DNA of 64,000 bases from Candidatus Cloacimonadales bacterium (GTDB lineage Bacteria > Cloacimonadota > Cloacimonadia > Cloacimonadales > JAFGVF01), in the NCBI GenBank assembly GCA_963678315.1, contig OY782781.1, positions 1,760,001-1,824,000 of the forward strand. The letters are read 5' to 3'. Position 1 is the stretch's first letter. Every line of letters begins with the position of its first letter. Made by a program: the position numbers and the translations under genes. Shown piece by piece: positions 44,391 to 63,580 of the stretch. Below the pieces are notes generated by a model that saw nothing but the letters and a program-made list of their open reading frames with translations, ran no database searches and had not been told where the DNA came from.

Positions 44391-45362
44391 ATGAAAAAGG
44401 TTATATTTCTTGTCTTATTATCAGTTCTAGTATGTAGTCTTATGGGCTCTAGAGTTAATCGAGAGAATAATAAAGGGACAGAATTGTTTCTTGATTCTTT
44501 ATATACTGAAGCAGAAGAACACTTCAAAGTTGCTCTAGAAGAAGATGAGTTTAACCCCATTGTTAATTACAATTATGGCTTGAACTTACTTAAAAAGTAT
44601 CAAGATTTCAAGAGTCGAGATGATTTGAAGCAGGCGATAGATTACATGTCAAAAGCTAAGCAAGATACAGTTAAATCATTAGATTATCTCGCAAGTTATA
44701 ACTTAGGAAATTTATACTACTTCAATGAGGAATATGATAAGGCTCTTGAAGAGTATAGTTCAGCAGCCTCCTTATTAGATTCTACAGCAGTAGATTTAGA
44801 TTTAGTATATAACACAGCCAATACAATCTACAAACTAACAGAGAAAGAATCGTCTAAAGATAGTCTTTTAACTCTAGTAGCTAGTATGTATAATTCAATC
44901 ATTGAGGATGTTCCTGATAATGAGAAAGCTAATATTTTACATAATCTTGGGAATGTATGTATGCAAAAACAGGATTTTCAAGGAGCTGTTGAACAATATA
45001 GCAAAGCTCTGCTAAGCAATCCTTATGATGATGAAACTAGGTATAACTATGAAATAGCTTTGCGTAAGCTAAAAGAACAAGAACAACAAAATCAACAAAA
45101 GCAGGACCAGAAACAACAAGATAAGAAGCAAGATAAGAAAGAGCAAAAGCAGGATAAACAGAATCAACAAAATCAAAAAGAACAGCAGAAAAAGGAATCT
45201 GAAAGAAAGCAAGATGAGTATAAGCAGATGAATAAGAAAGAGAAGCAGAAGTTAGATGCAGAAAAGAAATTAAATGCTCTAATACAACAGCAATCACAAG
45301 ATAAAAAAGATAAAGACAAGAAGCCTGTGATTAAGGTGCCACCATCAGGAAGGTTCTGGTAA
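44391..45362 (+). CDS. batC: BatC-like TPR protein with Q/K-rich tail
   Basis: YNLGN and HNLGN TPR motifs, Q/K low-complexity region, terminal W. Confidence 0.75.
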   Translation: MKKVIFLVLLSVLVCSLMGSRVNRENNKGTELFLDSLYTEAEEHFKVALEEDEFNPIVNYNYGLNLLKKYQDFKSRDDLKQAIDYMSKAKQDTVKSLDYLASYNLGNLYYFNEEYDKALEEYSSAASLLDSTAVDLDLVYNTANTIYKLTEKESSKDSLLTLVASMYNSIIEDVPDNEKANILHNLGNVCMQKQDFQGAVEQYSKALLSNPYDDETRYNYEIALRKLKEQEQQNQQKQDQKQQDKKQDKKEQKQDKQNQQNQKEQQKKESERKQDEYKQMNKKEKQKLDAEKKLNALIQQQSQDKKDKDKKPVIKVPPSGRFW

Positions 45363-47089
45363 TGAAGAAGCTACTTATAATATTAGTAATTCTATCTTCT
45401 GTATTTATACTCTCAGGTAATGTTACAGTTGATACAGATATTTCTTCTACTACAATCGGACTTGAAGATGTACTTACCTGGAAAGTTAGTGCTGAATCTG
45501 ATAAACAAGAAGATCTTGATATTAAGATTGATTTTAAAGATTTTGATTTCACAGTCTACGGTCCAAGTGTATCTTCAGGAACATCAATAAGCTTTGTTAA
45601 TGGTCGCTCTACAACAGCTCAATCAAAAGATTATACTTATACTCTCAAACCTAACAAAAAAGGTAAACTTCAAATTCCTTCAATGAAGATTATCGTTAAT
45701 AACAAGACATATTATTCTAAGGAATATGTTATTGATGTTAAAGAAGGCTCATTAGCTAGACGCCATGCACCCAATCGATTTGGTAGATCTTCTATTTTTG
45801 ATGATTTTTTTGGAAGTCCAGAACCCAGAAGAAGAAGTAGGGAAGAGGTATTTGTTGAAGTTGAATTTTCTAATCAGAATGTATACTTCGGAGAAGAAGT
45901 TGAGGTTAAATATATAGTCTATAACAATTTTGAGATGTTTGGTTATAATCTATCTATAGAACCTCATGTTGGTTATGGCTATGTCCTTACTGAAGAAGGT
46001 GAAAAACGATTCCAAAGAGTTAGGAAAGATGGTAAAATATATAATCGTAAAGTTATTGGAACTTATACAATAACTCCTAACATAACAGGTAAGATTAAAG
46101 TTCCAACTGTTAATATCATCAATCAATTCTATGGCTCAACTTATAAGAGCCCAGATAAATATGTTAATGTGAAAGCTCTTCCTGAGAAGAATAAAAGTAT
46201 TGATTTCTCTAACGGTATAGGTAAATTTACTATTAAAGCTAAATTATCACGTCATACGTTGCTAGTTAACAATCAATGTGATTTGATTGTAGAGATAGAA
46301 GGACAGGGTAATCTTGAAGATGTTATTTATCCTGAAGCTCCAGAAATCGAAGGAATTGAGTTTTTAGATCCTACAGGTGAATTAATACAAGATGCAGAAA
46401 ACAATAAATTAGTTTTAAAATATACTATTATACCTTCTGAGGTTGGTAAATTTATAATCCCTCCGATGTCATTCAATTTCTTTGATAAAGATAAGAAAGA
46501 TTATGTAACAGTCTATTCTGGAGAAGAAGTTTTGAAAGTTGCTTCTAATGGAAATTATAAATTAGCAGGAAATTCTAGTGATCAATTTTATACTAGAAAT
46601 AAACCCTTTATGGGGAAAATCAGTCATGAGATTATCTTATTCCATAAATCATGGTATTGGCTTTTATTAGCTATTGCTCTCATCTCTCTTATCGCTTACC
46701 TAGTTTTATACAAAATTTCTAAGCTAAGGAATAGTAACATTTCTTATGTTAGAAGGACTAGTGCAGAAAAGAAACTAAAGGAAGCTATCAAAAATGCTGA
46801 GGAGCAATCTACTTTAAACAGTACAGCCTTCTATAGTATTATTGAGAATAGTTTGCTTAGCTTCATTGCAAAGGTTACAGGTGTATCATTACAGAAATCC
46901 CAAGAAGAAATTATTCAAGCTCTAGAAAATAGCTATATAAAGAAAGTAACAGCAGAAAAGATTAATTACATGCTAAAGCATTGTGAAAGAATAAAATTTC
47001 AACCTAATAGTTCTAATCCTCAAAATCTAGAAAATGATCTAAATAGGTTTAAAGATATTTTTAAGGAGATTGTTAATGCAAGTAAGTAA
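45362..47089 (+). CDS. batD: BatD-like protein
   Basis: Signal peptide, SFVNG, IEGQGNL, FNFFD, C-terminal TM. Confidence 0.78.
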   Translation: MKKLLIILVILSSVFILSGNVTVDTDISSTTIGLEDVLTWKVSAESDKQEDLDIKIDFKDFDFTVYGPSVSSGTSISFVNGRSTTAQSKDYTYTLKPNKKGKLQIPSMKIIVNNKTYYSKEYVIDVKEGSLARRHAPNRFGRSSIFDDFFGSPEPRRRSREEVFVEVEFSNQNVYFGEEVEVKYIVYNNFEMFGYNLSIEPHVGYGYVLTEEGEKRFQRVRKDGKIYNRKVIGTYTITPNITGKIKVPTVNIINQFYGSTYKSPDKYVNVKALPEKNKSIDFSNGIGKFTIKAKLSRHTLLVNNQCDLIVEIEGQGNLEDVIYPEAPEIEGIEFLDPTGELIQDAENNKLVLKYTIIPSEVGKFIIPPMSFNFFDKDKKDYVTVYSGEEVLKVASNGNYKLAGNSSDQFYTRNKPFMGKISHEIILFHKSWYWLLLAIALISLIAYLVLYKISKLRNSNISYVRRTSAEKKLKEAIKNAEEQSTLNSTAFYSIIENSLLSFIAKVTGVSLQKSQEEIIQALENSYIKKVTAEKINYMLKHCERIKFQPNSSNPQNLENDLNRFKDIFKEIVNASK

Positions 47090-47861
47090 AATGTATAAAT
47101 ATGTGATAATCATTTTGTTTATGATTAATCTATCCTCTTTAATGAGTAGTAACCTAAAAGATACTAACATAACTTTTTCAGCTGGACTGGATTACTTTTC
47201 TAAAGCCCAGTATGAAGAAGCTCTTGATAAGTTTGAGCATTTAGAGAAATTCTCTAATGATCCAAATTTATATTATAATATTGGAACGTGTCATTATCAG
47301 CTAAACAATATTGGCAAGGCAGTCTTGTATTATAAACGTGGACTCTTGCTTGATAGTTCTAATCAAAGAATTCGTGATGCACTTGCAAGCATAGAAGAAC
47401 AAATTATTAACACTGATGATTATTCTCAAAGCTTTTTAAATAGATTGATTATGGATAGCTATAATTATTTAAGTCTTAACAGGTTAGCATGGCTGACTTT
47501 ATTTTGTATATTTCTTTTTGGCTTAATGTTATTTCTTTCATTGTCTAGTAAGTTGAATATCTCAGTTCTTGCAAAAAGATTTTATTTAACCTTCTCAGTA
47601 TTCTTACTCGCTTCAGTAGTTACTATTTCATTCATTAAGTACATTTCATTCAAAAACAATGACCAAATAGTTATTATAGAAGATAAAACAATTATTAAGA
47701 AAGCTGATGAGAATAGGGTTTTGCTTACTCAGAAGAAGTTAAAAGCTGGTACAACTCTTAAATATCTTGGTCAGAAAGATGATAATTCTATTGTTGCACT
47801 TCCTAATGGAGAACGTATACTCATAGATAAAGATTCATACAGTTTTGTTAAAGCAAAGTAG
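47070..47861 (+). CDS. batE: BatE-like TPR protein (true start may be slightly downstream)
   Basis: LYYNIGTCHYQLNNIGKAVLYYKRGL, two TM helices, last gene of bat cluster. Confidence 0.72.
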   Translation: MLMQVSKMYKYVIIILFMINLSSLMSSNLKDTNITFSAGLDYFSKAQYEEALDKFEHLEKFSNDPNLYYNIGTCHYQLNNIGKAVLYYKRGLLLDSSNQRIRDALASIEEQIINTDDYSQSFLNRLIMDSYNYLSLNRLAWLTLFCIFLFGLMLFLSLSSKLNISVLAKRFYLTFSVFLLASVVTISFIKYISFKNNDQIVIIEDKTIIKKADENRVLLTQKKLKAGTTLKYLGQKDDNSIVALPNGERILIDKDSYSFVKAK

Positions 47862-48037
47862 CCTTTCAACTCAATAAAACTGATTAGCTATAAAGAAAAA
47901 GCTTATGTTATTTACAAGTCTTTCTGCCTTTTGAAAAAAATATATGTATAAACTTATTTTATAAAGTACAAAATAAATTTGTTTTTGTAAAAAACAAAGC
48001 AAAAACACACAGACTTATAGCTTTGGCAAAAATCTAG

Positions 48038-48067
48038 AAAGAGCTTTGATTATTCAAAGCTCTTTTT
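48038..48067. terminator. Likely bidirectional terminator between convergent operons
   Basis: aaagagctttga-ttat-tcaaagctcttt-tt. Confidence 0.7.
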
Positions 48068-48091
48068 CAATATGTTTTGGGCTACACCTTT

Positions 48092-49282
48092 CTATAAGAG
48101 TGCATCTTCTTTTAAATCATATAAGTTTTCAATAATCTTTAGACCATCGAACTTAAAATGTTTGATATCTAAATCTTTAATCAAATCATCGATATCTACA
48201 TCGAATTGAAAATTATCAAAGTCTTCAGTATGCTTAAAAATATTATTACGTTCTGCAATTTCAACTGAAAAATCTTTTATTTCATCATTTCTTTTTACTT
48301 TAATTGATATTTTATCTCCAACATTATGTCGCTGGATTTCTTCTATGAAATCTTTGATTGATGTAACTTCCATATCTCCTATTGAAATGACAATATCATC
48401 TTTTTCTAATCCTGCTTTGCCTGCTGGGCTTTCTGGCATCACTTCTTCAATAACTAGACCTGACTTCTTCCCATTAACATTGGAATAACTGACCTTTACT
48501 CCGATAACATTATTATCTTGAGAATCAAATTTAAACATATAAGTTTTTTTATTCTTGTTATCAAACCAATCTGCATCTAAAAAAGAACTTGAATTGCTGA
48601 GGATTTGGGATAAATCGCTTTCTCCAAGCTCTACTTCTATTTTCCTTTCTTTTTCTTGAGAAGCTTTATAAACTAGAAGTTTAACTATATCTCCTGGTTT
48701 ATAATTCTTAAGCATACTAGCTAATTGTCCATGAGTGTATACTTTTTCACCATCCATTTTCATTATGATGTCATTAGGCTCAAGTCCAGCTTCATAAGCA
48801 GGTGAATCTTCTATAATAGTTGACAGAATCACACCATAATTGTTATTGTAGTTTAAATCTTTTTTTATTATAGAAGTTAGGGTTCCAGAAATAATACCTA
48901 GATATGCGCTTCTTGGTTGAACATCTTCTCGGGATCCTAACTCTATTTTTTTTGATATCTCTTCATTCTTACGTAAAATTACAAGTTTAACTTCATCACC
49001 TTTTTCTTTAACTGATAACATCTTAGATAATTGATTAGAAGTGTATATTTTTTCTCCATCTAGCTTTAGAACAATATCTCCAACTTCTAAATTAGCATTA
49101 TGTGCAGGACTTTTGTCAATAATTTCTTCAATCACCAGACCTTTGTTTTCTAGCTTATTTTTGGCATACTCATCTGAAGTAGGTTCTCTTAATAATACAC
49201 CAAGAAAACCCTCTGCAAATAGGACGCTACTAGTAATAAATAAGACAGTGGTTAATATTATTTTGACTGGATTCTTAATCAT
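48092..49282 (-). CDS. Exported protein with three PDZ domains and no protease domain
   Basis: Signal peptide; three units GFLGV/AYLGI/VIGV ... SPA..A.L...D. Confidence 0.85.
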   Translation of the reverse strand: MIKNPVKIILTTVLFITSSVLFAEGFLGVLLREPTSDEYAKNKLENKGLVIEEIIDKSPAHNANLEVGDIVLKLDGEKIYTSNQLSKMLSVKEKGDEVKLVILRKNEEISKKIELGSREDVQPRSAYLGIISGTLTSIIKKDLNYNNNYGVILSTIIEDSPAYEAGLEPNDIIMKMDGEKVYTHGQLASMLKNYKPGDIVKLLVYKASQEKERKIEVELGESDLSQILSNSSSFLDADWFDNKNKKTYMFKFDSQDNNVIGVKVSYSNVNGKKSGLVIEEVMPESPAGKAGLEKDDIVISIGDMEVTSIKDFIEEIQRHNVGDKISIKVKRNDEIKDFSVEIAERNNIFKHTEDFDNFQFDVDIDDLIKDLDIKHFKFDGLKIIENLYDLKEDALL

Positions 49283-49290
49283 ACTTTACC

Positions 49291-49815
49291 TCACATTTTT
49301 CTTATTACTTTCCTATTGTTATTACTTTCAATTTCGTTAATCAAGATAATACCATCAGAATTTTCTCTTTGAATTTTTCTAATCATATATATCTTTCCTT
49401 CTTCAAAATCATCAGGATTTATAGAATTGATAGTTTGAATATTATTGTTGTTTACGACATTATACTGCTTGTCCTTCTGTGTTTCCATCTTGTTTTTTGC
49501 TATAGCAGACAAGCCTTCAAAACCATTGATTTGTTCATTATTGTCACTTTCAACTGATTTAGTTACTTCAGTTTTTGGTGAATTCTCTCCCATAACTAGA
49601 TTATTTGCTTTACTTGCTAGAGAAGGCTTAATTACTAGAACCATGGAAAGTATTAAAAATAAAAATGCACTACTAAGGGCAAACCTAAATGAATTATGAT
49701 AAGTTTTTCTAAAGTACTTATTTTGTATCTTATCTCTTAATTCATACTTCAAAGAAATATCTTCAATTTCGGGAATCTTAAGGTTTGCAAGCCTTTCTTC
49801 AAATTTCTCCATCAT
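49291..49815 (-). CDS. Single-TM protein, putative anti-sigma factor
   Basis: Overlaps ECF sigma stop; short N-terminal domain then one TM. Confidence 0.55.
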   Translation of the reverse strand: MMEKFEERLANLKIPEIEDISLKYELRDKIQNKYFRKTYHNSFRFALSSAFLFLILSMVLVIKPSLASKANNLVMGENSPKTEVTKSVESDNNEQINGFEGLSAIAKNKMETQKDKQYNVVNNNNIQTINSINPDDFEEGKIYMIRKIQRENSDGIILINEIESNNNRKVIRKM

Positions 49816-50347
49816 TACTCCCTTCGAGGTTAATCATAATTTTTTTGAGTTTCTTCATTGCTCTATGCAGTTGGACCTTAACAGCACCTTCTTTTTTATT
49901 AAAAATCTCAGCTAATTCTTTATTGCTTTTCTTTTCAAAGTATTTAAGAATGATTATATTCTGATCTTTTTCTGATAATCTGCTTATTCCAACTTTTAGA
50001 TTTGAATAATCAATATGTATATCTTCCCCTAACGGGTCAGCTATATTATGCTTAACTTCTCGATCTAATTTTCTACTTCTACCAGATTTTCTATAAAAAT
50101 CTGTAACTTCATTCATAGCAATTCTATATATCCATCCAGAAAAAGCACCTTTGTATAAATATTTAAATTTATAGAGGTTTTTCATAGCCTTCATGAAGGT
50201 GTTAGATACTATGTCTCTACGTGTTTCTTCATCACTGACCTTGTGATAAACAAATCTATTTATCATAGGAAAGTACTTGTTATAAAGTTCTTCGAAGGCA
50301 TTTATATCCTTCTTTGCTTTGTTAACTAATTCTCTATCTTCCATCAT
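49799..50347 (-). CDS. ECF RNA polymerase sigma factor
   Basis: AFEELY, FSGWIYRIAMN, EIFNKKEGAVKVQLHRA. Confidence 0.92.
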   Translation of the reverse strand: MMEDRELVNKAKKDINAFEELYNKYFPMINRFVYHKVSDEETRRDIVSNTFMKAMKNLYKFKYLYKGAFSGWIYRIAMNEVTDFYRKSGRSRKLDREVKHNIADPLGEDIHIDYSNLKVGISRLSEKDQNIIILKYFEKKSNKELAEIFNKKEGAVKVQLHRAMKKLKKIMINLEGSNDGEI

Positions 50348-51218: not shown

Positions 51219-52292
51219 TTAAATTACTTCACTAATCTTTTCAGTTTTTTTGAAGTGCTCATTTTCTAAATCTTCCATTTCACTTAAAGCTTTATTAAGC
51301 AGTTCAACTCTTTCAGAATAAGGAATAAAAGCTGATTTAAAACCATTGATAATAATGTTTTTAACATCTTTATATGTTAAATTCAACTTCTCAATAACAA
51401 ACATAAATTCATCAGTCATTGTTGTGTTAGAAACAGTTCTATTATCAGTATTTAAAGTTACTCTTAAACCGTAATCCAAGTAGAATCCTAGTGGATGAAC
51501 TTCTAATGATGACACTGCTTTTGTATGGAAGTTACTTTTAAAACATATTTCTAAAGGAATTCTGTGATCATTAACATAGTTTAACAAATCACCATCTTCG
51601 ATTAACCTAGTGCCATGCCCAATTCTATGTGTTCCGCAATAGTGAAGAGCCTGATGTATTGATTCAGGACCGTAGGCTTCACCAGCATGAATAGTGATGT
51701 TTAAATTGTTTTTAAGCGCTAATCTAAAAGCCTCTTCATGATCTTTAGCTGGATAATTATACTCAGCTCCAGCTAAATCAAAGCCAATAACACCCTTGTT
51801 TTTATAAGCAACAGCCAGTTCAGCTAATCTTAGAGAAGTCGCTGGGTTAATATTTCTTATACCACAAATTATCACAGCTGTCTTTATATTATAGTCATGT
51901 TCTGCTCTTCTTAATCCCTTTATTACCGCATCAGAAATTTCTGTTAGCTTCAAGCCATTGTTAGTGTGCAGAATAGGTGAGTAGCGAACTTCTATATATC
52001 TTACATTTTCTTTAGCTGAATCTTCAGCAAGTTCGTAAGCAGCTCTTTCAAGTCCTTCTTGATCTTGAAGAACTAGATTAGCAATGTGGAAACCTTGTAA
52101 ATACTCATCTAAACTCTTACAATCATCTCCACAAGAAACCATTTCCATTAACTTATCTTTATCCATGGTAGGAAGCTTTATATTATTTTTCTTGGCTAAT
52201 TCTAGCATTGTATCGATTCTAACTGAACCATCTAGGTGCACATGTAAATCACTTTTAGGTAATTTTTCAACAAATTCTCTTGTTAATTTCAT
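51219..52292 (-). CDS. add: Adenosine deaminase
   Basis: Start reassigned to ATG 52292 (GGAGG RBS); LHVHLDGS, GFDLAGAE, TIHAGEAYG, RIGHG, NTDN. Confidence 0.93.
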   Translation of the reverse strand: MKLTREFVEKLPKSDLHVHLDGSVRIDTMLELAKKNNIKLPTMDKDKLMEMVSCGDDCKSLDEYLQGFHIANLVLQDQEGLERAAYELAEDSAKENVRYIEVRYSPILHTNNGLKLTEISDAVIKGLRRAEHDYNIKTAVIICGIRNINPATSLRLAELAVAYKNKGVIGFDLAGAEYNYPAKDHEEAFRLALKNNLNITIHAGEAYGPESIHQALHYCGTHRIGHGTRLIEDGDLLNYVNDHRIPLEICFKSNFHTKAVSSLEVHPLGFYLDYGLRVTLNTDNRTVSNTTMTDEFMFVIEKLNLTYKDVKNIIINGFKSAFIPYSERVELLNKALSEMEDLENEHFKKTEKISEVI

Positions 52293-52703
52293 TTTTCCTC
52301 CATTAATTTTATATAATATGAGTGACAAGTGCTTTATTGTCAAAGTTTATCTAGATTTTTTTTTATTTTCTTGTTCTTGTGTGTATCCATTGATAGCTCC
52401 AAAATATTGATTTTAATGAGCCAAAACACGTTATCAGACTCACATAATAAATACAATTATTTAGAAATGAAATATTATAATAAGTATAAACATCTGGATA
52501 AAACTTTTCTTGACACATCTATTTAAGCACTCTTTCATTGGCTTATCAATAAATGATTGTATTCTAAATAAAGAGGTTGTTATGATAAGGTCTATATTTT
52601 TACTTCAACTACAATTTCTACAACTATGCCAAATTTTAACTATAACTATTTCATTACATATCAATAATAATCTAAAAGTTACAATACCTACTAAGGAGCC
52701 CCC

Positions 52704-54320
52704 ATGTATAAATTTTTAATTACTATGCTATTTTTTATAAGCTTATTATGCTGTTTTGCTGAAAATGAAATGCCTATAATGTATACCTTTCAAGGCCCTT
52801 GGGAAGGATCAAAATATGGTAAATTAATGACCTCGTTAGATTTCAATGCTGATGGTATTGATGACTTACTTATCTTTTCTAATGGAAATCCAGAAAACTA
52901 TCATAATGAAGTATATATCCACTATGGAGGAGAAACTTTTTCACCAGTTGCAGATGATACACTAAAAGCTATTTGCACTGGACAATTTTATTTAGGGCTT
53001 TTTGCTACAGGAGATGTTAATGGTGATGGTTATGATGATTTTGCAACTTTTGGAAGAACACCAAATATCGACAATGCCTACACTTATAACTTTTACTACG
53101 GTGGCCCAAATCCTGATTTACTTGTAGATCACCAATGTAGCTACTATGTCGGACAATCAGCAGGATATGACTGGTCTTATCCTAAAATGATCTCATGCCT
53201 TGGAGATGTTAATGGTGATGGCTGTGACGAACAAGGTATCATCTTGGAAAGAGGGTATAACGAATCATCATTTGCTTTACTAACAGGTGGAAGCTTTGAA
53301 ATGTTAGAAGTATATCCTAGTGAATATAATTTAGGCTCTCTAGATATCGACCCACTAGGAGATTTAAACAATGATGGCTATGATGATTTTTCTATAGGTT
53401 ACTGGATATATCCAGAATATAGTTATACCTATGTCTATTGGGGCAATCCTGATTTTGATTTTAATCAACATGATAGTATTGCTATCTACAATCATTCTTC
53501 AATTTCTTATCATTTTTCAGGAAGTCTTGGAGTTGGAGACTTCAACAATGATGGCTATGATGATTTTATCTATCCTCGTCAAGACAATTTAAGTAACCAT
53601 GGTTATGGCCTTAAGTTAATGACTAATGATTTACATCAAGCCCAAGGTTTTCCACTACAAAGACCTTCTTACCACCCTTACTATATAAATAATGAAAGCT
53701 ACAATGGACGCTACATCAAACATGGAGATTTTAATGGAGATGGTTATAGTGATATAGTTGGAGCAAATCCTTCTGCATATTTAAATGATGGTATCGCTGG
53801 AGTTTGGTTAGGAGGTCAAGTCCCTAATGGCACTTGTGATTTAACTTTAAATGAGGTTAGTCAGCAAGCTGACCAATTTGGATATTCTTTAGCAGTAGGC
53901 GATTTTGATAATGATGGTTATGATGATATTGCTATCTCAGAGCCCTTCATGGTTTCAGGATGGGATCAGTTTGGCTTTGTAACTATATTTAGTGGATCCG
54001 ACCAACTAACTGATACAACAGTGGCTAATGACGATACAGAAGAAGTCATAAAAGATTCATTAAAACTAAATTTATATCCAAACCCTGTAAAATCTAATAA
54101 CTTACAACTTAATTACGAAATTAAAGGAGACATCCCTAAGAATTGTTTAACCTCAAAAATGGATATATACAATTTAAAGGGACAGAAAGTACAAAGTAAT
54201 AATATCAATATCGTTAGCAAATCTGGAACTGTAGAACTAAACTCTATAGCTTCAGGAATGTACTTAGCTAAAATTAAAATCAATAATGAGATTATCTCAG
54301 CTAAATTCATTGTTAAATAA
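52704..54320 (+). CDS. Secreted FG-GAP repeat protein with T9SS-like C-terminal domain, copy 1 (N-block allele A)
   Basis: Signal peptide; repeated GD(V/F/L)NxDGYDD; YPNP...IYNLKGQKV...ASGMY tail. Confidence 0.9.
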   Translation: MYKFLITMLFFISLLCCFAENEMPIMYTFQGPWEGSKYGKLMTSLDFNADGIDDLLIFSNGNPENYHNEVYIHYGGETFSPVADDTLKAICTGQFYLGLFATGDVNGDGYDDFATFGRTPNIDNAYTYNFYYGGPNPDLLVDHQCSYYVGQSAGYDWSYPKMISCLGDVNGDGCDEQGIILERGYNESSFALLTGGSFEMLEVYPSEYNLGSLDIDPLGDLNNDGYDDFSIGYWIYPEYSYTYVYWGNPDFDFNQHDSIAIYNHSSISYHFSGSLGVGDFNNDGYDDFIYPRQDNLSNHGYGLKLMTNDLHQAQGFPLQRPSYHPYYINNESYNGRYIKHGDFNGDGYSDIVGANPSAYLNDGIAGVWLGGQVPNGTCDLTLNEVSQQADQFGYSLAVGDFDNDGYDDIAISEPFMVSGWDQFGFVTIFSGSDQLTDTTVANDDTEEVIKDSLKLNLYPNPVKSNNLQLNYEIKGDIPKNCLTSKMDIYNLKGQKVQSNNINIVSKSGTVELNSIASGMYLAKIKINNEIISAKFIVK

Positions 54321-54338
54321 CTTATAGAAGGAGCCTCC

Positions 54339-55955
54339 ATGTATAAATTTTTAATTACTATGCTATTTTTTATAAGCTTATTAAGCTGTTTTGCTGAAAA
54401 TGAAATGCCTATAATGTATACCTTTCAAGGCCCTTGGGAAGGATCAAAATATGGTAAATTAATGACCTCGTTAGATTTCAATGCTGATGGTATTGATGAC
54501 TTACTTATCTTTTCTAATGGAAATCCAGAAAACTATCATAATGAAGTATATATCCACTATGGAGGAGAAACTTTTTCACCAGTTGCAGATGATACACTAA
54601 AAGCTATTTGCACTGGACAATTTTATTTAGGGCTTTTTGCTACAGGAGATGTTAATGGTGATGGTTATGATGATTTTGCAACTTTTGGAAGAACACCAAA
54701 TATCGATAATGCCTACACTTATAGCTTTTACTACGGTGGCCCAAATCCTGATTTACTTGTAGACCACCAATGTAGCTACTATGTCGGACAATCAGCAGGA
54801 TATGACTGGTCTTATCCTAAAATGATCTCATGCCTTGGAGATGTTAATGGTGATGGCTGTGACGAACAAGGACTTATCCTTCAAAGAATAGGACTAGAAG
54901 CATCAATAGGACTTTTAGTAGGAGGAAGCTTTGAAATTTTAGAAGTTATCCCAGCTGGATTAATTTTTTCTTGTATAGATATCGATCCACTAGGAGATTT
55001 AAACAATGATGGCTATGATGATTTTTCTATAGGTTACTGGATTTATCCAGAATATAGTTATACCTATGTCTATTGGGGCAATCCTGATTTTGATTTTAAT
55101 CAACATGATAGTATTGCTATCTACAATCATTCTTCAATTTCTTATCATTTTTCAGGAAGTCTTGGAATTGGAGACTTCAACAATGATGGTTATGATGATT
55201 TTATCTATCCTCGTCAAGACAATTTTTCTAATAATGGTTATGGCCTTAAGTTAATGACTAATGATTTACATCAAGCCCAAGGTTTTCCACTACAAAGACC
55301 TTCTTACCATCCTTGTTATATCTACGATGATGGCTACAATGGGCATTACATCAAACATGGAGATTTTAATGGAGATGGTTATAGTGATATTGTTGGAGCA
55401 AATCCTTCTGCATATTTAAATGATGGTATCGCTGGAGTTTGGTTAGGAGGTCAAGTCCCTAATGGCACTTGTGATTTAACTTTAAATGAGGTTAGTCAGC
55501 AAGCTGACCAATTTGGATATTCTTTAGCAGTAGGTGATTTTGATAATGATGGTTATGATGATATTGCTATCTCAGAACCCTTCATGGTTTCAGGATGGGA
55601 TCAGTTTGGCTTTGTAACTATATTTAGTGGATCCGACCAACTAACTGATACAACAGTGGCTAATGACGATACAGAAGAAGTCATAAAAGATTCATTAAAA
55701 TTAAATTTATATCCAAACCCTGTAAAATCTAATAACTTACAACTTAATTTCGAAATTAAAGGAGACATCCCTAAGAATTGTATAACCTCAAAAATGGATA
55801 TATACAATTTAAAGGGACAGAAAGTACAAAGTAATAATATCAATATCGTTAGCAAATCTGGAACTGTAGAACTAGACTCTATAGCTTCAGGAATGTACTT
55901 AGCTAAAATTAAAATCAATAATGAGATTATCTCAGCTAAATTCATTGTTAAATAA
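54339..55955 (+). CDS. FG-GAP repeat protein copy 2 (N-block allele A)
   Basis: Near-identical scaffold to copy 1. Confidence 0.9.
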   Translation: MYKFLITMLFFISLLSCFAENEMPIMYTFQGPWEGSKYGKLMTSLDFNADGIDDLLIFSNGNPENYHNEVYIHYGGETFSPVADDTLKAICTGQFYLGLFATGDVNGDGYDDFATFGRTPNIDNAYTYSFYYGGPNPDLLVDHQCSYYVGQSAGYDWSYPKMISCLGDVNGDGCDEQGLILQRIGLEASIGLLVGGSFEILEVIPAGLIFSCIDIDPLGDLNNDGYDDFSIGYWIYPEYSYTYVYWGNPDFDFNQHDSIAIYNHSSISYHFSGSLGIGDFNNDGYDDFIYPRQDNFSNNGYGLKLMTNDLHQAQGFPLQRPSYHPCYIYDDGYNGHYIKHGDFNGDGYSDIVGANPSAYLNDGIAGVWLGGQVPNGTCDLTLNEVSQQADQFGYSLAVGDFDNDGYDDIAISEPFMVSGWDQFGFVTIFSGSDQLTDTTVANDDTEEVIKDSLKLNLYPNPVKSNNLQLNFEIKGDIPKNCITSKMDIYNLKGQKVQSNNINIVSKSGTVELDSIASGMYLAKIKINNEIISAKFIVK

Positions 55956-55974
55956 CTTTTAAGAAGGAGCCCCC

Positions 55975-57591
55975 ATGTATAAATTTTTAATTACTATGCT
56001 ACTTTTTATAAGTTTATTAAGCTGTTTTGCTGAAAATGAAATGCCTATAATGTATACCTTTCAAGGCCCTTGGGAAGGATCTTACTATGGTGAGTTTGTT
56101 ATATCATTAGACTTCAATGCAGATAACATCGACGATTTGTTAATATATAATGCTGGAGAAGAAAATCTGTACAATGGGGTTATTGATATCCATTTTGGAG
56201 GAAACGAATTTGGAATAGTCCCAGATTTACAGTTAGAGGGTACTTTTTTAGGGGAGCATGGAAAAGGATTATATGCTGTGAATGATGTTAACGGTGATGG
56301 TTATGAAGATTTCGCGACACTGAGTCCATCTGCAAATATCGACAATGCCTACACCTACAACTTTTACTACGGTGGCCCAAATCCTGATTTACTTGTAGAC
56401 CAGCAATGTAGCTACTATGTAGGACAATCAGCAGGATATGACTGGTCTTATCCTAAAATGATCTCATGCCTTGGAGATGTTAATGGTGATGGCTGTGACG
56501 AACAAGGACTTATCCTTCAAAGAATAGGACCAGAAGCATCAATAGGACTTTTAGTAGGAGGAAGCTTTGAAATTTTAGAAGTTATCCCAGCTGGATTAAT
56601 TTTTTCTTGTATAGATATCGATCCACTAGGAGATTTAAACAATGATGGCTATGATGATTTTTCTATAGGTTACTGGATTTATCCAGAATATAGTTATACC
56701 TATGTCTATTGGGGCAATCCTGATTTTGATTTTAATCAACATGATAGTATTGCTATCTACAATCATTCTTCAATTTCTTATCATTTTTCAGGAAGTCTTG
56801 GAATTGGAGACTTCAACAATGATGGCTATGATGATTTTATCTATCCTCGTCAAGACAATTTTTCTAATAATGGTTATGGCCTTAAGTTAATGACTAATGA
56901 TTTACATCAAGCCCAAGGTTTTCCACTACAAAGACCTTCTTACCATCCTTGTTATATCTACGATGATGGCTACAATGGGCATTACATCAAACATGGAGAT
57001 TTTAATGGAGATGGTTATAGTGATATTGTTGGAGCAAATCCTTCTGCATATTTAAATGATGGTATCGCTGGAGTTTGGTTAGGAGGTCAGGTCCCTAATG
57101 GCACTTGTGATTTAACTTTAAATGAGGTTAGTCAGCAAGCTGACCAATTTGGATATTCTTTAGCAGTAGGCGATTTTGATAATGATGGTTATGATGATAT
57201 TGCAATCTCAGAACCCTTTATGGTTTCAGGATGGGATCAGTTTGGCTTTGTAACTATATTTAGTGGATCCGACCAACTAACTGATACAACAGTGGCTAAT
57301 GACGATACAGAAGAAGTCATAAAAGATTCATTAAAATTAAATTTATATCCAAACCCTGTAAAATCTAATAACTTACAACTTAATTTCGAAATTAAAGGAG
57401 ACATCCCTAAGAATTGTTTAACCTCAAAAATGGATATATACAATTTAAAGGGACAGAAAGTACAAAGTAATGATATCAATATCGTTAGCAAATCTGGGAC
57501 TGTAGAACTAAACTCTATAGCTTCAGGAATGTACTTAGCTAAAATTAAAATCAATGATGAGATTATCTCAGCTAAGTTCATTGTTAAATAA
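55975..57591 (+). CDS. FG-GAP repeat protein copy 3 (N-block allele B)
   Basis: Near-identical scaffold, distinct residues about 37-120. Confidence 0.9.
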   Translation: MYKFLITMLLFISLLSCFAENEMPIMYTFQGPWEGSYYGEFVISLDFNADNIDDLLIYNAGEENLYNGVIDIHFGGNEFGIVPDLQLEGTFLGEHGKGLYAVNDVNGDGYEDFATLSPSANIDNAYTYNFYYGGPNPDLLVDQQCSYYVGQSAGYDWSYPKMISCLGDVNGDGCDEQGLILQRIGPEASIGLLVGGSFEILEVIPAGLIFSCIDIDPLGDLNNDGYDDFSIGYWIYPEYSYTYVYWGNPDFDFNQHDSIAIYNHSSISYHFSGSLGIGDFNNDGYDDFIYPRQDNFSNNGYGLKLMTNDLHQAQGFPLQRPSYHPCYIYDDGYNGHYIKHGDFNGDGYSDIVGANPSAYLNDGIAGVWLGGQVPNGTCDLTLNEVSQQADQFGYSLAVGDFDNDGYDDIAISEPFMVSGWDQFGFVTIFSGSDQLTDTTVANDDTEEVIKDSLKLNLYPNPVKSNNLQLNFEIKGDIPKNCLTSKMDIYNLKGQKVQSNDINIVSKSGTVELNSIASGMYLAKIKINDEIISAKFIVK

Positions 57592-57609
57592 CTTATAGAA
57601 GGAGCCCCC

Positions 57610-59223
57610 ATGTATAAATTTTTAATTACTATGCTATTTTTTATAAGCTTATTAAGCTGTTTTGCTGAAAATGAAATGCCTATAATGTATACCTTTCAAG
57701 GCCCTTGGGAAGGATCAGCCTATGGTAGAGATGTAATATCACTTGACTTTAACGCTGATGGAATTGATGACTTTATGACAACAGCTCAAGCAGAAGTAGA
57801 TAATCTGTATAACGTATATATCCACTATGGCGGAGAAAACTTCTGTCCTGTTCCAAATGATACTCTTCAAGTAGGTTATGATAATATTTATAGAATAGGT
57901 TTGTTTGCTACAGGAGATGTTAATGGTGATGGTTATGATGACTTTGCAACTTTTGGTAGATACCCTAATCAAGAAATAGAATACACCTACAACTTTTACT
58001 ACGGTGGCCCCAATCCTGATTTACTTGTAGATCACCAATGTAGCTACTATGTCGGACAATCAGACGGATATGACTGGTCTTATCCTAAAATGATCTCATG
58101 CCTTGGAGATGTTAATGGTGATGGCTGTGACGAACAAGCTATCATCTTGGAAAGAGGGTATAACATAGCATCCATTGCTTTACTTAGAGGAGGAAGCTTT
58201 GAAATTTTAGAAGTTATCCCAGCTGGATTAATTTTTTCTTGTATAGATATCGATCCACTAGGAGATTTAAACAATGATGGCTATGATGATTTTTCTATAG
58301 GTTACTGGATTTATCCAGAATATAGTTATACCTATGTCTATTGGGGCAATCCTGATTTTGATTTTAATCAACATGATAGTATTGCTATCTACAATCATTC
58401 TTCAATTTCTTATCATTTTTCAGGAAGTCTTGGAATTGGAGACTTCAACAATGATGGTTATGATGATTTTATCTATCCTCGTCAAGACAATTTTTCTAAT
58501 AATGGTTATGGCCTTAAGTTAATGACTAATGATTTACATCAAGCCCAAGGTTTTCCACTACAAAGACCTTCTTACCATCCTTGTTATATCTACGATGATG
58601 GCTACAATGGGCATTACATCAAACATGGAGATTTTAATGGAGATGGTTATAGTGATATTGTTGGAGCAAATCCTTCTGCATATTTAAATGATGGTATCGC
58701 TGGAGTTTGGTTAGGAGGTCAAGTCCCTAATGGCACTTGTGATTTAACTTTAAATGCGATTAGTCAAGCCCCAGACCAATTTGGATATTCTTTAGCAGTA
58801 GGTGATTTTGATAATGATGGTTATGATGATATTGCTATCTCAGAGCCCTTCATGGTTTCAGGATGGGATCAGTTTGGCTTTGTAACTATATTTAGTGGAT
58901 CCGACCAACTAACTGATACAACAGTGGCTAATGACGATACAGAAGAAGTCATAAAAGATTCATTAAAATTAAATTTATATCCAAACCCTGTAAAATCTAA
59001 TAACTTACAACTTCATTACGAAATTAAAGGAGACATCCCTAAGAATTGTTTAACCTCAAAAATGGATATATACAATTTAAAGGGACAGAAAGTACAAAGT
59101 AATAATATCAATATCGTTAGCAAATCTGGAACTGTAGAACTAGACTCTATAGCTTCAGGAATGTACTTAGCTAAAATTAAAATCAATAATGAGATTATCT
59201 CAGCTAAATTCATTGTTAAATAA
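57610..59223 (+). CDS. FG-GAP repeat protein copy 4 (N-block allele C)
   Basis: Near-identical scaffold, third N-block allele. Confidence 0.9.
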   Translation: MYKFLITMLFFISLLSCFAENEMPIMYTFQGPWEGSAYGRDVISLDFNADGIDDFMTTAQAEVDNLYNVYIHYGGENFCPVPNDTLQVGYDNIYRIGLFATGDVNGDGYDDFATFGRYPNQEIEYTYNFYYGGPNPDLLVDHQCSYYVGQSDGYDWSYPKMISCLGDVNGDGCDEQAIILERGYNIASIALLRGGSFEILEVIPAGLIFSCIDIDPLGDLNNDGYDDFSIGYWIYPEYSYTYVYWGNPDFDFNQHDSIAIYNHSSISYHFSGSLGIGDFNNDGYDDFIYPRQDNFSNNGYGLKLMTNDLHQAQGFPLQRPSYHPCYIYDDGYNGHYIKHGDFNGDGYSDIVGANPSAYLNDGIAGVWLGGQVPNGTCDLTLNAISQAPDQFGYSLAVGDFDNDGYDDIAISEPFMVSGWDQFGFVTIFSGSDQLTDTTVANDDTEEVIKDSLKLNLYPNPVKSNNLQLHYEIKGDIPKNCLTSKMDIYNLKGQKVQSNNINIVSKSGTVELDSIASGMYLAKIKINNEIISAKFIVK

Positions 59224-59242
59224 CTTTTAAGAAGGAGCCCCC

Positions 59243-60859
59243 ATGTATAAATTTTTAATTACTATGCTACTTTTTATAAGTTTATTAAGCTGTTTTGCTG
59301 AAAATGAAATGCCTATAATGTATACCTTTCAAGGCCCTTGGGAAGGATCTTACTATGGTGAGTTTGTTATATCATTAGACTTCAATGCAGATAACATCGA
59401 CGATTTGTTAATATATAATGCTGGAGAAGAAAATCTGTACAATGGGGTTATTGATATCCATTTTGGAGGAAACGAATTTGGAATAGTCCCAGATTTACAG
59501 TTAGAGGGTACTTTTTTAGGGGAGCATGGAAAAGGATTATATGCTGTGAATGATGTTAACGGTGATGGTTATGAAGATTTCGCGACACTGAGTCCATCTG
59601 CAAATATCGACAATGCCTACACCTACAACTTTTACTACGGTGGCCCAAATCCTGATTTACTTGTAGACCAGCAATGTAGCTACTATGTAGGACAATCAGC
59701 AGGATATGACTGGTCTTATCCTAAAATGATCTCATGCCTTGGAGATGTTAATGGTGATGGCTGTGACGAACAAGGACTTATCCTTCAAAGAATAGGACCA
59801 GAAGCATCAATAGGACTTTTAGTAGGAGGAAGCTTTGAAATTTTAGAAGTTATCCCAGCTGGATTAATTTTTTCTTGTATAGATATCGATCCACTAGGAG
59901 ATTTAAACAATGATGGCTATGATGATTTTTCTATAGGTTACTGGATTTATCCAGAATATAGTTATACCTATGTCTATTGGGGCAATCCTGATTTTGATTT
60001 TAATCAACATGATAGTATTGCTATCTACAATCATTCTTCAATTTCTTATCATTTTTCAGGAAGTCTTGGAATTGGAGACTTCAACAATGATGGCTATGAT
60101 GATTTTATCTATCCTCGTCAAGACAATTTTTCTAATAATGGTTATGGCCTTAAGTTAATGACTAATGATTTACATCAAGCCCAAGGTTTTCCACTACAAA
60201 GACCTTCTTACCATCCTTGTTATATCTACGATGATGGCTACAATGGGCATTACATCAAACATGGAGATTTTAATGGAGATGGTTATAGTGATATTGTTGG
60301 AGCAAATCCTTCTGCATATTTAAATGATGGTATCGCTGGAGTTTGGTTAGGAGGTCAGGTCCCTAATGGCACTTGTGATTTAACTTTAAATGAGGTTAGT
60401 CAGCAAGCTGACCAATTTGGATATTCTTTAGCAGTAGGCGATTTTGATAATGATGGTTATGATGATATTGCAATCTCAGAACCCTTTATGGTTTCAGGAT
60501 GGGATCAGTTTGGCTTTGTAACTATATTTAGTGGATCCGACCAACTAACTGATACAAAAGTGGCTAATGACGATACAGAAGAAGTCATAAAAGATTCATT
60601 AAAATTAAATTTATATCCAAACCCTGTAAAATCTAATAACTTACAACTTAATTTCGAAATTAAAGGAGACATCCCTAAGAATTGTTTAACCTCAAAAATG
60701 GATATATACAATTTAAAGGGACAGAAAGTACAAAGTAATGATATCAATATCGTTAGCAAATCTGGGACTGTAGAACTAAACTCTATAGCTTCAGGAATGT
60801 ACTTAGCTAAAATTAAAATCAATGATGAGATTATCTCAGCTAAGTTCATTGTTAAATAA
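59243..60859 (+). CDS. FG-GAP repeat protein copy 5 (N-block allele B)
   Basis: Protein matches copy 3 except TDTT to TDTK. Confidence 0.9.
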   Translation: MYKFLITMLLFISLLSCFAENEMPIMYTFQGPWEGSYYGEFVISLDFNADNIDDLLIYNAGEENLYNGVIDIHFGGNEFGIVPDLQLEGTFLGEHGKGLYAVNDVNGDGYEDFATLSPSANIDNAYTYNFYYGGPNPDLLVDQQCSYYVGQSAGYDWSYPKMISCLGDVNGDGCDEQGLILQRIGPEASIGLLVGGSFEILEVIPAGLIFSCIDIDPLGDLNNDGYDDFSIGYWIYPEYSYTYVYWGNPDFDFNQHDSIAIYNHSSISYHFSGSLGIGDFNNDGYDDFIYPRQDNFSNNGYGLKLMTNDLHQAQGFPLQRPSYHPCYIYDDGYNGHYIKHGDFNGDGYSDIVGANPSAYLNDGIAGVWLGGQVPNGTCDLTLNEVSQQADQFGYSLAVGDFDNDGYDDIAISEPFMVSGWDQFGFVTIFSGSDQLTDTKVANDDTEEVIKDSLKLNLYPNPVKSNNLQLNFEIKGDIPKNCLTSKMDIYNLKGQKVQSNDINIVSKSGTVELNSIASGMYLAKIKINDEIISAKFIVK

Positions 60860-60877
60860 CTTATAGAAGGAGCCCCC

Positions 60878-62491
60878 ATGTATAAATTTTTAATTACTAT
60901 GCTATTTTTTATAAGCTTATTAAGCTGTTTTGCTGAAAATGAAATGCCTATAATGTATACCTTTCAAGGCCCTTGGGAAGGATCAGCCTATGGTAGAGAT
61001 GTAATATCACTTGACTTTAACGCTGATGGAATTGATGACTTTATGACAACAGCTCAAGCAGAAGTAGATAATCTGTATAACGTATATATCCACTATGGCG
61101 GAGAAAACTTCTGTCCTGTTCCAAATGATACTCTTCAAGTAGGTTATGATAATATTTATAGAATAGGTTTGTTTGCTACAGGAGATGTTAATGGTGATGG
61201 TTATGATGACTTTGCAACTTTTGGTAGATACCCTAATCAAGAAATAGAATACACCTACAACTTTTACTACGGTGGCCCCAATCCTGATTTACTTGTAGAT
61301 CACCAATGTAGCTACTATGTCGGACAATCAGACGGATATGACTGGTCTTATCCTAAAATGATCTCATGCCTTGGAGATGTTAATGGTGATGGCTGTGACG
61401 AACAAGCTATCATCTTGGAAAGAGGGTATAACATAGCATCCATTGCTTTACTTAGAGGAGGAAGCTTTGAAATTTTAGAAGTGATACCTAATGAAAACAA
61501 TTTAGGTTCTATAGATATCGATCCACTAGGAGATTTAAACAATGATGGCTATGATGATTTTTCTATAGGTTACTGGATATATCCAGAATATAGTTATACC
61601 TATGTCTATTGGGGCAATCCAGATTTTGATTTTAATCAACATGATAGTATTGCTATCTACAATCATTCTTCAATTTCTTATCATTTTTCAGGAAGTCTTG
61701 GAATTGGAGACTTCAACAATGATGGCTATGATGATTTTATCTATCCTCGTCAAGACAATTTTTCTAATAATGGTTATGGCCTTAAGTTAATGACTAATGA
61801 TTTACATGAAGCCCAAGGTTTTCCACTACAAAGACCTTCTTACCATCCTTGTTATATCTACGATGATGGCTACAATGGGCATTACATCAAACATGGAGAT
61901 TTTAATGGAGATGGTTATAGTGATATTGTTGGAGCAAATCCTTCTGCATATTTAAATGATGGTATCGCTGGAGTTTGGTTAGGAGGTCAAGTCCCTAATG
62001 GCACTTGTGATTTAACTTTAAATGCGATTAGTCAAGCCCCAGACCAATTTGGATATTCTTTAGCAGTAGGTGATTTTGATAATGATGGTTATGATGATAT
62101 TGCAATCTCAGAACCCTTTATGGTTTCAGGATGGGATCAGTTTGGCTTTGTAACTATATTTAGTGGATCCGACCAACTAACTGATACAACAGTGGCTAAT
62201 GACGATACAGAAGAAGTCATAAAAGATTCATTAAAATTAAATTTATATCCAAACCCTGTAAAATCTAATAACTTACAACTTAATTTCGAAATTAAAGGAG
62301 ACATCCCTAAGAATTGTATAACCTCAAAAATGGATATATACAATTTAAAGGGACAGAAAGTACAAAGTAATGATATCAATATCGTTCGCAAATCTGGAAC
62401 TGTAGAACTAGACTCTATAGCTTCAGGAATGTACTTAGCTAAAATTAAAATCAATGATGAGATTATCTCAGCTAAGTTTATTGTTAAATGA
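60878..62491 (+). CDS. FG-GAP repeat protein copy 6 (N-block allele C)
   Basis: Like copy 4 but with IPNENNLGSID block and different tail polymorphisms. Confidence 0.9.
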   Translation: MYKFLITMLFFISLLSCFAENEMPIMYTFQGPWEGSAYGRDVISLDFNADGIDDFMTTAQAEVDNLYNVYIHYGGENFCPVPNDTLQVGYDNIYRIGLFATGDVNGDGYDDFATFGRYPNQEIEYTYNFYYGGPNPDLLVDHQCSYYVGQSDGYDWSYPKMISCLGDVNGDGCDEQAIILERGYNIASIALLRGGSFEILEVIPNENNLGSIDIDPLGDLNNDGYDDFSIGYWIYPEYSYTYVYWGNPDFDFNQHDSIAIYNHSSISYHFSGSLGIGDFNNDGYDDFIYPRQDNFSNNGYGLKLMTNDLHEAQGFPLQRPSYHPCYIYDDGYNGHYIKHGDFNGDGYSDIVGANPSAYLNDGIAGVWLGGQVPNGTCDLTLNAISQAPDQFGYSLAVGDFDNDGYDDIAISEPFMVSGWDQFGFVTIFSGSDQLTDTTVANDDTEEVIKDSLKLNLYPNPVKSNNLQLNFEIKGDIPKNCITSKMDIYNLKGQKVQSNDINIVRKSGTVELDSIASGMYLAKIKINDEIISAKFIVK

Positions 62492-62518
62492 CGGTAACAC
62501 AGTTGATTATATTCCATC

Positions 62519-62613
62519 TTGAGAGATGTTTTTCCAAAGGTCTCTACATCATTAATAGCCCCCTTGAAAAATTGGCTTTTTTTCAATGAGACCAGTAAGG
62601 GAGGAGTTAGGAG
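62519..62613. repeat. REP-like elements immediately after the FG-GAP array
   Basis: Degenerate gaga...tctctac element, then hairpin ...cttgaaaaattggctttttttcaatgagaccagtaag-ggaggagttaggag homologous to 5657-5722 and 23591-23646. Confidence 0.75.
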
Positions 62614-62773
62614 ATGTACTGCTAGTAAAATGGAGTTAGCAACATCAGAGCAGCAAGCTACTAACAATAGCTAAAAACTCATTCAATGACTGATAAAATA
62701 ATGTTTGACAGATTTTGAAAAGGCTAGTTATTATACAAAGTTGTAATTAAGAGATCTGTAATAGGAGGAAAAT

Positions 62774-63580
62774 ATGAAGAAATCAAGTTACCAAGAACAT
62801 ATAGAAAAAAAGATATTGAAACGTCTAGATAATAAAGCACTGGAAGTAACAAAATATATATTTGAAAACGAAGAGATACAAACACTTCAGGATTACTGCA
62901 ATAATGTATCAATTAAACGCTTAGGATTCAATGATCATGGACCAGTTCACATGAGGAAGGCTACATTGAATGCAATAGTTATGTTTAGGCTTCTTAAAAA
63001 GAATGGGATTGAATTTAATCTTGAAAAAGAGTGTTGGGGTAATGAAGAAGATAGTTTAATTGCTGTCATACTTGCTTCATTGTTCCATGATTTCGGGATG
63101 TCAATTGCTAGAGAGAACCATGAACTTATGAGTGTAGAAATTGCTAGACCATATATCCAAAAAATACTAGAGAAATTCTATGAGGAAAGTGATTTAAAGA
63201 AAAAAGTAGCTATTATGTCAATAGCAACTGAAGGTATTTTAGGACACATGGGTACACAGAAGATACATTCCTTAGAGGCTGGACTAGTCTTAATTGGTGA
63301 CGGAACGGATATGGAGAGGGGGAGAGCTAGAATACCAATATTGTTAGCTTCAGCACCTAAACCTGGTGATATTCATAGAACATCTGCAGATGCTATCGAG
63401 AGAGTTCGATTTGAAGAAGGCAAGGAAAAACCTATCGAGATAAAAGTAACTATGAACTCTTCAGTTGGTTTCTTCCAAATTGAAGAAGTACTATTCCCAA
63501 AAATAGCTATTAGTCCGATTAAGAAATACATTGAATTATATGCTGGTGTTGAAGGCGAAGAGTATCTTCAATATTTATAG
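62774..63580 (+). CDS. HD-domain phosphohydrolase
   Basis: RLGFNDHGPVH, SLFHDFGM, GDGTDMERGRARIP. Confidence 0.85.
   Translation: MKKSSYQEHIEKKILKRLDNKALEVTKYIFENEEIQTLQDYCNNVSIKRLGFNDHGPVHMRKATLNAIVMFRLLKKNGIEFNLEKECWGNEEDSLIAVILASLFHDFGMSIARENHELMSVEIARPYIQKILEKFYEESDLKKKVAIMSIATEGILGHMGTQKIHSLEAGLVLIGDGTDMERGRARIPILLASAPKPGDIHRTSADAIERVRFEEGKEKPIEIKVTMNSSVGFFQIEEVLFPKIAISPIKKYIELYAGVEGEEYLQYL

Follow-up and report, generated by a model that had tools for sequence, protein, structure and literature searches.

A tandem array of FG-GAP genes

The 64,000-nt stretch of Candidatus Cloacimonadales DNA analysed here (the window; 32.8% G+C) is part of a single 2,988,751-bp contig and carries, at 52704..62491 of the forward strand, six intact open reading frames (ORFs) of 537-538 amino acids, arranged head to tail and flanked by ordinary genes. 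The ORFs lie where they were placed in an earlier reading of the sequence, referred to here as the original prediction. We call the copies g1 (52704..54320; 538 aa), g2 (54339..55955; 538 aa), g3 (55975..57591; 538 aa), g4 (57610..59223; 537 aa), g5 (59243..60859; 538 aa) and g6 (60878..62491; 537 aa). They are separated by spacers of 18, 19, 18, 19 and 18 nt, the first at 54321..54338, each of which contains an AAGGAG motif resembling a ribosome-binding site. No terminator-like site was found within 52200-63000, and for this reason the six genes are probably co-transcribed. A promoter scan was uninformative (45 sites, against 55.5 in shuffled sequences), and the 149 nt downstream of the array fold no better than shuffles (z -0.59). 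Outside the array, the same genome contains three more distant paralogues, at 50%, 34% and 26% identity.

The copies are mosaics of alternative blocks

The six genes share a scaffold but differ in discrete blocks, and every allele quoted in the original prediction, for the N-block and for blocks 2a, 2b, 3 and 4, is present as written. Coordinates are given for g1, on the forward strand. The N-block (52809..53087; aa 36-128) corresponds to blade 1 and half of blade 2 of the propeller described below, and its three alleles are distributed A, A, B, C, B, C from g1 to g6. Block 2a (53235..53288; aa 178-195) is a predicted beta-hairpin of blade 3 with its tip towards what we call the FG-GAP face. 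Block 2b (53310..53342; aa 203-213), which has three alleles, links blade 3 to blade 4 and is predicted to lie on this face as well; block 3 (53673..53711; aa 324-336) is the loop joining blades 5 and 6, and block 4 (53853..53870; aa 384-389) the loop joining blades 6 and 7. To these we add a fifth short block at aa 296-299, which reads LSNH or FSNN (53589..53600; loop 2-3 of blade 5), and a small block at aa 153-158.

Described in these terms, g1 combines N-allele A and LSNH with the first alleles of blocks 2a, 2b, 3 and 4; g3 combines N-allele B and FSNN with the second alleles of 2a, 2b and 3 and the first of block 4; and g4 has N-allele C, the third 2a allele, the second alleles of 2b, 3 and 4, and FSNN. 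The g2 gene is an N-allele A fused to a g3-type remainder, with the switch at approximately nt 450-534 of the gene, while g6 carries a third 2b allele that is also present in a second strain. Pairwise differences over 1,617 aligned nt are 1 for g3-g5, 30 for g4-g6, 76 for g1-g2 and 130-195 for the other 12 pairs; given the first two values, g5-g6 is most simply explained as a recent duplication of the g3-g4 pair that would later have been modified by conversion, and this seems likely from the alignment.

Recombination among the copies is evident. Using our own implementations of both tests, a PHI-type analysis of 182 informative sites gave a neighbour incompatibility of 0.078, compared with 0.137 in 2,000 permutations (p=0.0005), and the Hudson-Kaplan minimum for the six copies was 8, i.e., at least eight crossovers. 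Identical tracts of 270-608 nt are common to copies that otherwise differ; g2 and g4 share a 569-nt tract (nt 582-1150) that runs across blocks 2b, 296-299 and 3, and g6 equals g4 over the first 608 aligned nt. Crossovers are scattered along the gene and one, seen in the second strain, falls inside block 2a. The block mosaic is real and beyond chance, and the crossovers, the long identical tracts and the allele pairings all support the earlier proposal of recombination through shared constant sequence. That proposal also held that propeller blades are shuffled, which is apt for the N-block (about 1.5 blades), but the remaining blocks are single loops or hairpins.

Predicted fold, export and position of the variable loops

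In the three copies scanned against Pfam, FG-GAP repeats (PF01839/PF13517) are found and the PF18962 tail scores above cut-off; PF18962 matches at the C-termini of all six. In g1 this tail, a type A C-terminal sorting domain of the T9SS (type IX secretion system), covers aa 456-538 (54069..54317) and is homogenised among the copies; a signal peptide at aa 1-19 (52704..52760), predicted by eye from the sequence, is likewise near-identical across them. Each protein has seven D-x-N-x-D-G calcium motifs. An AlphaFold2 model of mature g1, based on a 119-sequence alignment, has a mean pLDDT of 87.3 and shows a recurring unit of four strands, a linker without order and a tail folded as a beta-sandwich. 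Among the matches that Foldseek lists for this model, the best are integrin alpha chains throughout (top E 2.5e-15), and a sequence profile also recovers integrins, after one bacterial 'secreted esterase'. The array proteins are predicted to be seven-bladed, integrin-like FG-GAP propellers. With SprA above cut-off, two PorV matches and 126 tail matches in the genome, export via the T9SS is likely, and the proteins would then reach the cell surface; the available part of PMC11285876 states that a T9SS 'may also be present' in Cloacimonadota. The secreted FG-GAP propellers of the original prediction are supported by Pfam, AlphaFold2, Foldseek and the SprA and PorV matches.

According to the available part of PMC3192720, the calcium loops of such blades (1-2 and 3-4) lie at the end opposite the FG-GAP/cage motif. 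When faces are assigned by motif topology and checked against predicted strands, 28 of 105 FG-GAP-face loop residues within aa 129-430 are polymorphic among ten proteins (the six plus four from the second strain). For the opposite face the counts are 2 of 41 in non-calcium loops and 1 of 45 in calcium loops. A similar class contrast of faces is seen in the paralogue pair outside the array. The signal peptide, linker and tail differ by 0.5-0.8 between lineages (0.5-0.6 for linker and tail) and by 0.01-0.04 within the array. On this topology the variable residues are not scattered along the protein; the short blocks are predicted to occupy the propeller face opposite the calcium sites, and this face may bind a target outside the cell, be it substrate, phage or partner cell.

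Variation in a second strain and in sequencing runs

Three protein clusters contain ten array proteins, comprising these six and four distinct proteins from a second strain, none of which is identical to any of the six; g2 is 8 aa from second-strain protein P0003. All ten known copies are intact. The second strain draws on the same allele set, with N-alleles A, A, A and B and no C, and three of its four proteins carry block haplotypes absent from the six genes. The claim that blocks assort independently did not hold within the six genes, which form five haplotypes in which N-allele C always occurs with the third 2a and second block-4 alleles, but once the second strain is added the alleles are uncoupled: the ten genes represent eight haplotypes, one of them common to both strains, and all four allele pairs occur both for the N-block with 2a and for block 3 with block 4. 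Array content has turned over between strains, and the system is active between them; the array is not identical in all strains. A scan of JGI metagenomes kept 79 loci, all 23-42% identical and none close to the second strain.

The 50% paralogue (G000:C1:1746652-1748310, G000 being the genome that contains the window) is single here and has two forms in the second strain (proteins P0005, P0128, P0004), one of which has a different N-terminal 240 aa and the same C-terminal half.

Nine sequencing runs from three studies contain part of the stretch, and no RNA run is among those listed; eight were compared as contigs (X7 was left out), of which X9, with a share of 0.13, is too thin. Contig joints, having short sides, were left aside. 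Run X1 is without differences in the flanks and may represent the source; relative to the flank, its depths for N-alleles A, B and C are 1.5, 2.1 and 1.4, against an assembly-based expectation of 2 for every allele. The corresponding ratios in X2 are 1.2, 0.5 and 0.6. Absolute depths in X3 are 17.5, 10.0 and 8.7 (flank 9.9-12.6) and in X4 16.1, 11 and 7 (flank 12.1), with constant pieces at about three times flank depth in both. In X6 and X8, which carry the second strain's allele at aa 157-158, allele A is 2.3-2.9 times as deep as B. Taken against the flank, contig depth corresponds to approximately five copies in X1 and 2-3 in X2-X5; it is a rough measure, and therefore suggests, rather than proves, that the runs differ in copy number and contain mixed populations. 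At 53252-53257, X4 has a further 2a variant at about flank depth, in which three of six bases at the tip of the hairpin are changed; X3 and X5, from the same study, lack it. One X2 contig with a new block combination was not counted, as collapsed contigs can be chimeric. No contig of the eight compared runs spans the array, so the count of six comes from the assembly alone.

Related arrays in other genomes

The search for relatives covered 41 genomes, our own included and no congener among them, of which 14 have matches at E <=1e-30. Homologues that bear a taxon name mostly carry the label Candidatus Cloacimonetes or Cloacimonadota. Eleven regions were compared in seven genomes, and ten of these yield 2-9 full-length copies each, 63-96% identical within a region bar two outliers. 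Recombination is likewise indicated in the three sets with at least four copies (p=0.002, the lowest value attainable with 500 permutations), where block mosaics are visible, and the FG-GAP-face contrast holds in genomes G007, G031 and G001. Similar arrays are common across the order, and the comparison with related genomes that the original prediction had suggested thus yields both a differing array in the second strain and mosaic arrays in relatives. A FastTree tree of 46 proteins, no more than a summary where a family recombines, groups copies by lineage and places our own and the second-strain copies in one clade (support 1.0). Within-lineage closeness, conversion tracts and chimeras are all observed, and copy-number change is suggested by contig depth, as in a tandem family under concerted evolution.

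In a sister genus, copies mix across species in the tree. Its five species are 78-85% identical in recA and 73-82% in argS, and share blocks that differ at 4 of 525 nt (G007-G005), 11 of 522 nt (G001-G005) and 16 of 282 nt (G007-G001). These shared blocks, up to 99% identical, occur in different combinations (L023, L025, L002, L003, L005, L016, L018), and the shared DNA stops about 100-250 nt from the gene. Copies that lie between the same flanking genes in G009 and G005 are 77% identical, while this G005 copy and a G007 copy located elsewhere are 90% identical. A recent exchange of blocks between species of this genus is likely; assembly or polishing cross-talk may alternatively have produced the sharing.

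A large gene directly follows array copies in G005, G007 and G013 (L023:3884-8404, L021:3-1151, L022:12824-13999, L024:2-1863); in G007 it encodes 1,506 aa with a T9SS tail and has no Pfam family in its front part. As a partner of the array it was rejected, since its N-terminal part has no match in G000.

Neighbouring genes and other repeats

Directly 3' of g6, at 62520-62625, lies a short intergenic repeat of REP-like character with 108 matches in the genome, often as inverted pairs. Elsewhere in the window there are two tandem genes with zinc-ribbon, Ser-Thr kinase and FGE-sulfatase domains (24165-28639) and a MoxR-DUF58-vWA-TPR-BatD operon, followed by an ECF sigma factor, a small gene without assignment and a triple-PDZ protein (39588-50347).

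The genome has a second tandem array of T9SS cargo (G000:C1:2972703-2988751 and 1-1539), with approximately six genes of 743-756 aa that have a near-identical tail and very divergent fronts, alternate copies differing so little (by 36 aa) as to be near-identical; the break in the contig falls within the final gene. Two related blocks of about 20 kb (G000:C1:2158676-2178165 and 2421075-2442722), possibly a mobile element, encode proteins that are 77-98% identical, T9SS cargo included. There are also two insertion-sequence-like families of seven copies each.

Discussion

The block alleles are old. Silent sites between alleles are 0.21-0.69 different (above 0.4 in 11 of 12 comparisons), against 0.00-0.05 outside the blocks, and the three N-block alleles differ at 49-60% of silent sites; the frame has been homogenised around blocks of old sequence, which have not been hypermutated. 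In proposing a mechanism, we need to explain how such alleles persist and recombine within copies that are otherwise near-identical. It is probable, in our judgement, that unequal crossover and gene conversion homogenise the scaffold while reshuffling old loop alleles. RecA would perform the recombination among array copies (recA and a full-length mutS-family match are present in the genome); unequal crossover would alter copy number, and conversion would homogenise the scaffold. The old alleles would derive from ancient divergence of paralogues or by import from related species, and because the sister genus shares blocks across species, the latter route appears to be in use in the family. Selection would keep several versions of each loop, provided that the variable face has an extracellular binding target.

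Two other explanations would attribute the pattern either to the assembly or to a dedicated machinery. The six copies and their mosaics might be consensus errors in a repeat, an idea encouraged by the single nucleotide that separates g3 from g5, by the roughly five copies and uneven allele depths of X1 in place of 2:2:2, by the failure of any contig in the eight runs to span the array, and by the genome's single contig breaking within another tandem array. Yet the three N-alleles are recovered without differences in runs from a separate study (C with one difference, in X3 and X4), the same alleles occur in a second assembly, and the 2b allele of g6, missing from g4, is found in the second strain. 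An artefact could change the exact number or order of copies, but not the alleles or their multiplicity, which are real; that the mosaics are assembly chimeras is, given the alleles in other runs and in the second assembly, very improbable. Equally improbable is programmed variation, in which a dedicated enzyme or silent donors would generate the blocks, as in a shufflon, a diversity-generating retroelement (DGR) or an expression site with cassettes. Discrete alternative blocks within a constant frame are what such systems produce, and the genome does encode four reverse-transcriptase loci and two tyrosine recombinases; however, the former are at least 680 kb and the latter 230-300 kb from the array. 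The original prediction that no recombinase or reverse transcriptase is in the window agrees with the Pfam scan, which found neither family among the 47 other window ORFs (8 without a family) or the four scanned separately. Per-base change rates (A 0.28, C 0.38, G 0.26, T 0.23) show no adenine bias, silent sites are diverged as much as replacement sites, the copies are all intact and in a single orientation, no donor tract exists elsewhere in the genome (there are 16 exact 18-mer matches outside the array), and crossovers are scattered, with one inside a block. Old silent divergence, without adenine bias, donors or linked enzymes, therefore speaks against targeted mutation or a site-specific switch. 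A DGR is contradicted by the lack of a linked reverse transcriptase, an outside template and adenine-specific substitutions, and by silent sites near saturation; a shufflon or other site-specific inversion by the single orientation, the scattered crossovers and the absence of a recombinase from the window ORFs (serine and Piv-type enzymes were not covered by the genome-wide search); and a silent-cassette model by six intact copies, each with a signal peptide and AAGGAG, and no donor tracts elsewhere. The analogy with antigenic-variation arrays drawn in the original prediction does not extend to design, in that nothing shows a dedicated diversification machine or a silent-cassette and expression-site layout.

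The reverse-transcriptase loci (G000:C1:983457, 1079714, 2505635, 2875199) are themselves repeated elements of 2 kb that carry a YADD motif and fall into two pairs, whose members are 96-99.5% identical to each other; in one pair the reverse transcriptase is split over two frames. They are likely to be group II introns.

If recombination among the copies is accepted, it remains to be explained why alternative loops survive it. Selection on the FG-GAP face is likely, although not separated from neutral persistence. After aa 129, six of the eight multi-residue islands centre on the FG-GAP face, where uniform placement would expect 26% (p=0.005), the remaining pair being two-residue clusters within the tail. 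Although identical tracts cross them freely, the islands of 8-17 nt have retained their two alleles in each strain, which favours selection, following the argument in the available part of PMC3924837 that divergence peaks under gene conversion are a signature of selection. The alternative is that the array serves dosage: copies are kept for more protein, conversion removes differences wherever similarity suffices, and what it leaves, at the loops that have diverged most, are the blocks, whose variety brings no benefit. We regard this as unlikely, if considerably less so than the two explanations above. It draws on the other tandem T9SS-cargo duplications in the genome and on the location of all eight islands where background divergence is 0.72-0.90. 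But blocks 2b, 296-299 and 3 are crossed without interruption by identical tracts of up to 569 nt, which means that heterology is no bar to conversion; the small islands persist nonetheless, each strain having the two alleles; stretches just as diverged on the opposite face or in the linker (aa 249-256, 308-314, 446-454) have at most one polymorphic residue; and the ten known copies are all intact.

Several points weigh against the combination of recombination and selection that we prefer, and some of them favour the dosage explanation. A search for positive selection by dN/dS found none among the 12 block-allele comparisons, and the ratio is below one in 10 of them. The excess of islands on the FG-GAP face fades when background divergence is used to weight their placement (p=0.02 at its first power, 0.05 at the second, 0.11 at the fourth and 0.23 at the eighth). 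Of the ten FG-GAP-face loops beyond aa 129, three show no variation and a fourth shows one change, and among the relatives the face contrast is weak in G005 (0.11 vs 0.08) and absent in G013 (0.36 vs 0.36). The faces were assigned from motifs and not from coordinates, the blocks were delimited after the differences were known, and sites inside one block are not independent. The array of the second strain is known from proteins alone (its contig is 3,016,564 bp), in which gene order and identical duplicates are not visible; contig depth is approximate, and X1 may not be independent of the assembly if it is the source sample. As regards export, the T9SS components covered by the search were SprA and PorV. 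In sum, the surface-diversification locus of the original prediction stands as regards recombination, turnover and blocks on one face, while selection for diversity is not shown.

The significance of the array is as a concrete candidate for surface variation in an uncultured, widespread phylum, with a fixed scaffold and few swappable loops. Each loop has two or three natural alleles, and these are already found in different mixes in two strains; such alleles on one scaffold offer a handle on the ligand of bacterial integrin-like propellers. The near-identical blocks that distant members of the sister genus have in common suggest a pool of surface genes crossing species boundaries. More speculatively, and we hold this as a doubtful extension, Cloacimonadota might possess an order-wide recombining repertoire of integrin-like binding surfaces, in which ancient propeller-loop alleles are kept, swapped between species that are about 80% identical in housekeeping genes, and reassorted within tandem arrays rapidly enough for cells of one population to differ in the loop combinations they display, under frequency-dependent selection by phages, epibionts or partner cells.

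Comparison with known systems

The mechanism, homologous recombination among tandem paralogues, is familiar, but the system is undescribed for this protein family in the literature searched: among the 12-30 best matches listed per search, main texts gave no account of a recombining FG-GAP array or of FG-GAP proteins in Cloacimonadota, the available parts of PMC11285876 and PMC8542988 included, although tables in genome papers may list such genes. The comparisons that follow likewise rely on the available parts of the sources cited. A leucine-rich repeat (LRR) locus of Flavobacterium psychrophilum (PMC10392669) is alike in that its tandem genes encode a signal peptide and a T9SS tail, its variable residues map to a single face in models, its number of copies and their content vary by strain, and it has no mobile-element genes; its suggested function is adhesion or as a phage receptor. 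That locus consists of LRR solenoids of 2-14 repeats, with many gene fragments and junctions of 1-5 bp microhomology indicative of illegitimate recombination, whereas the array described here comprises fixed-length seven-blade propellers, intact and in-register copies and long identical tracts, with each loop occurring as two or three old alleles. Bacterial integrin-type propellers (PMC3192720) similarly have seven repeats, each with a calcium motif, and integrin alpha as the nearest solved fold; they are not described there as a tandem, recombining, T9SS-tailed family, and in our proteins the GAP tripeptide is degenerate in several blades.

The array has partial analogues among systems of antigenic variation (PMC4534519). 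Neisseria pilE/pilS, Borrelia vlsE and Anaplasma msp2 are alike in homologous exchange via conserved stretches, and Ehrlichia p28 and Mycoplasma gallisepticum vlhA in having intact tandem copies. Unlike these systems, the present array has no silent pseudogene donors, its spacers are too short for separate promoters, and there is no known driver in host immunity. A parallel in evolutionary pattern is provided by the red and green opsins of primates (PMC3924837), which are also homogenised paralogues with short, old, diverged islands and chimeric haplotypes created by conversion. In the opsins, however, the selected sites are functionally known and fixed to a locus, while in the propeller array the alleles change position and the number of copies varies.

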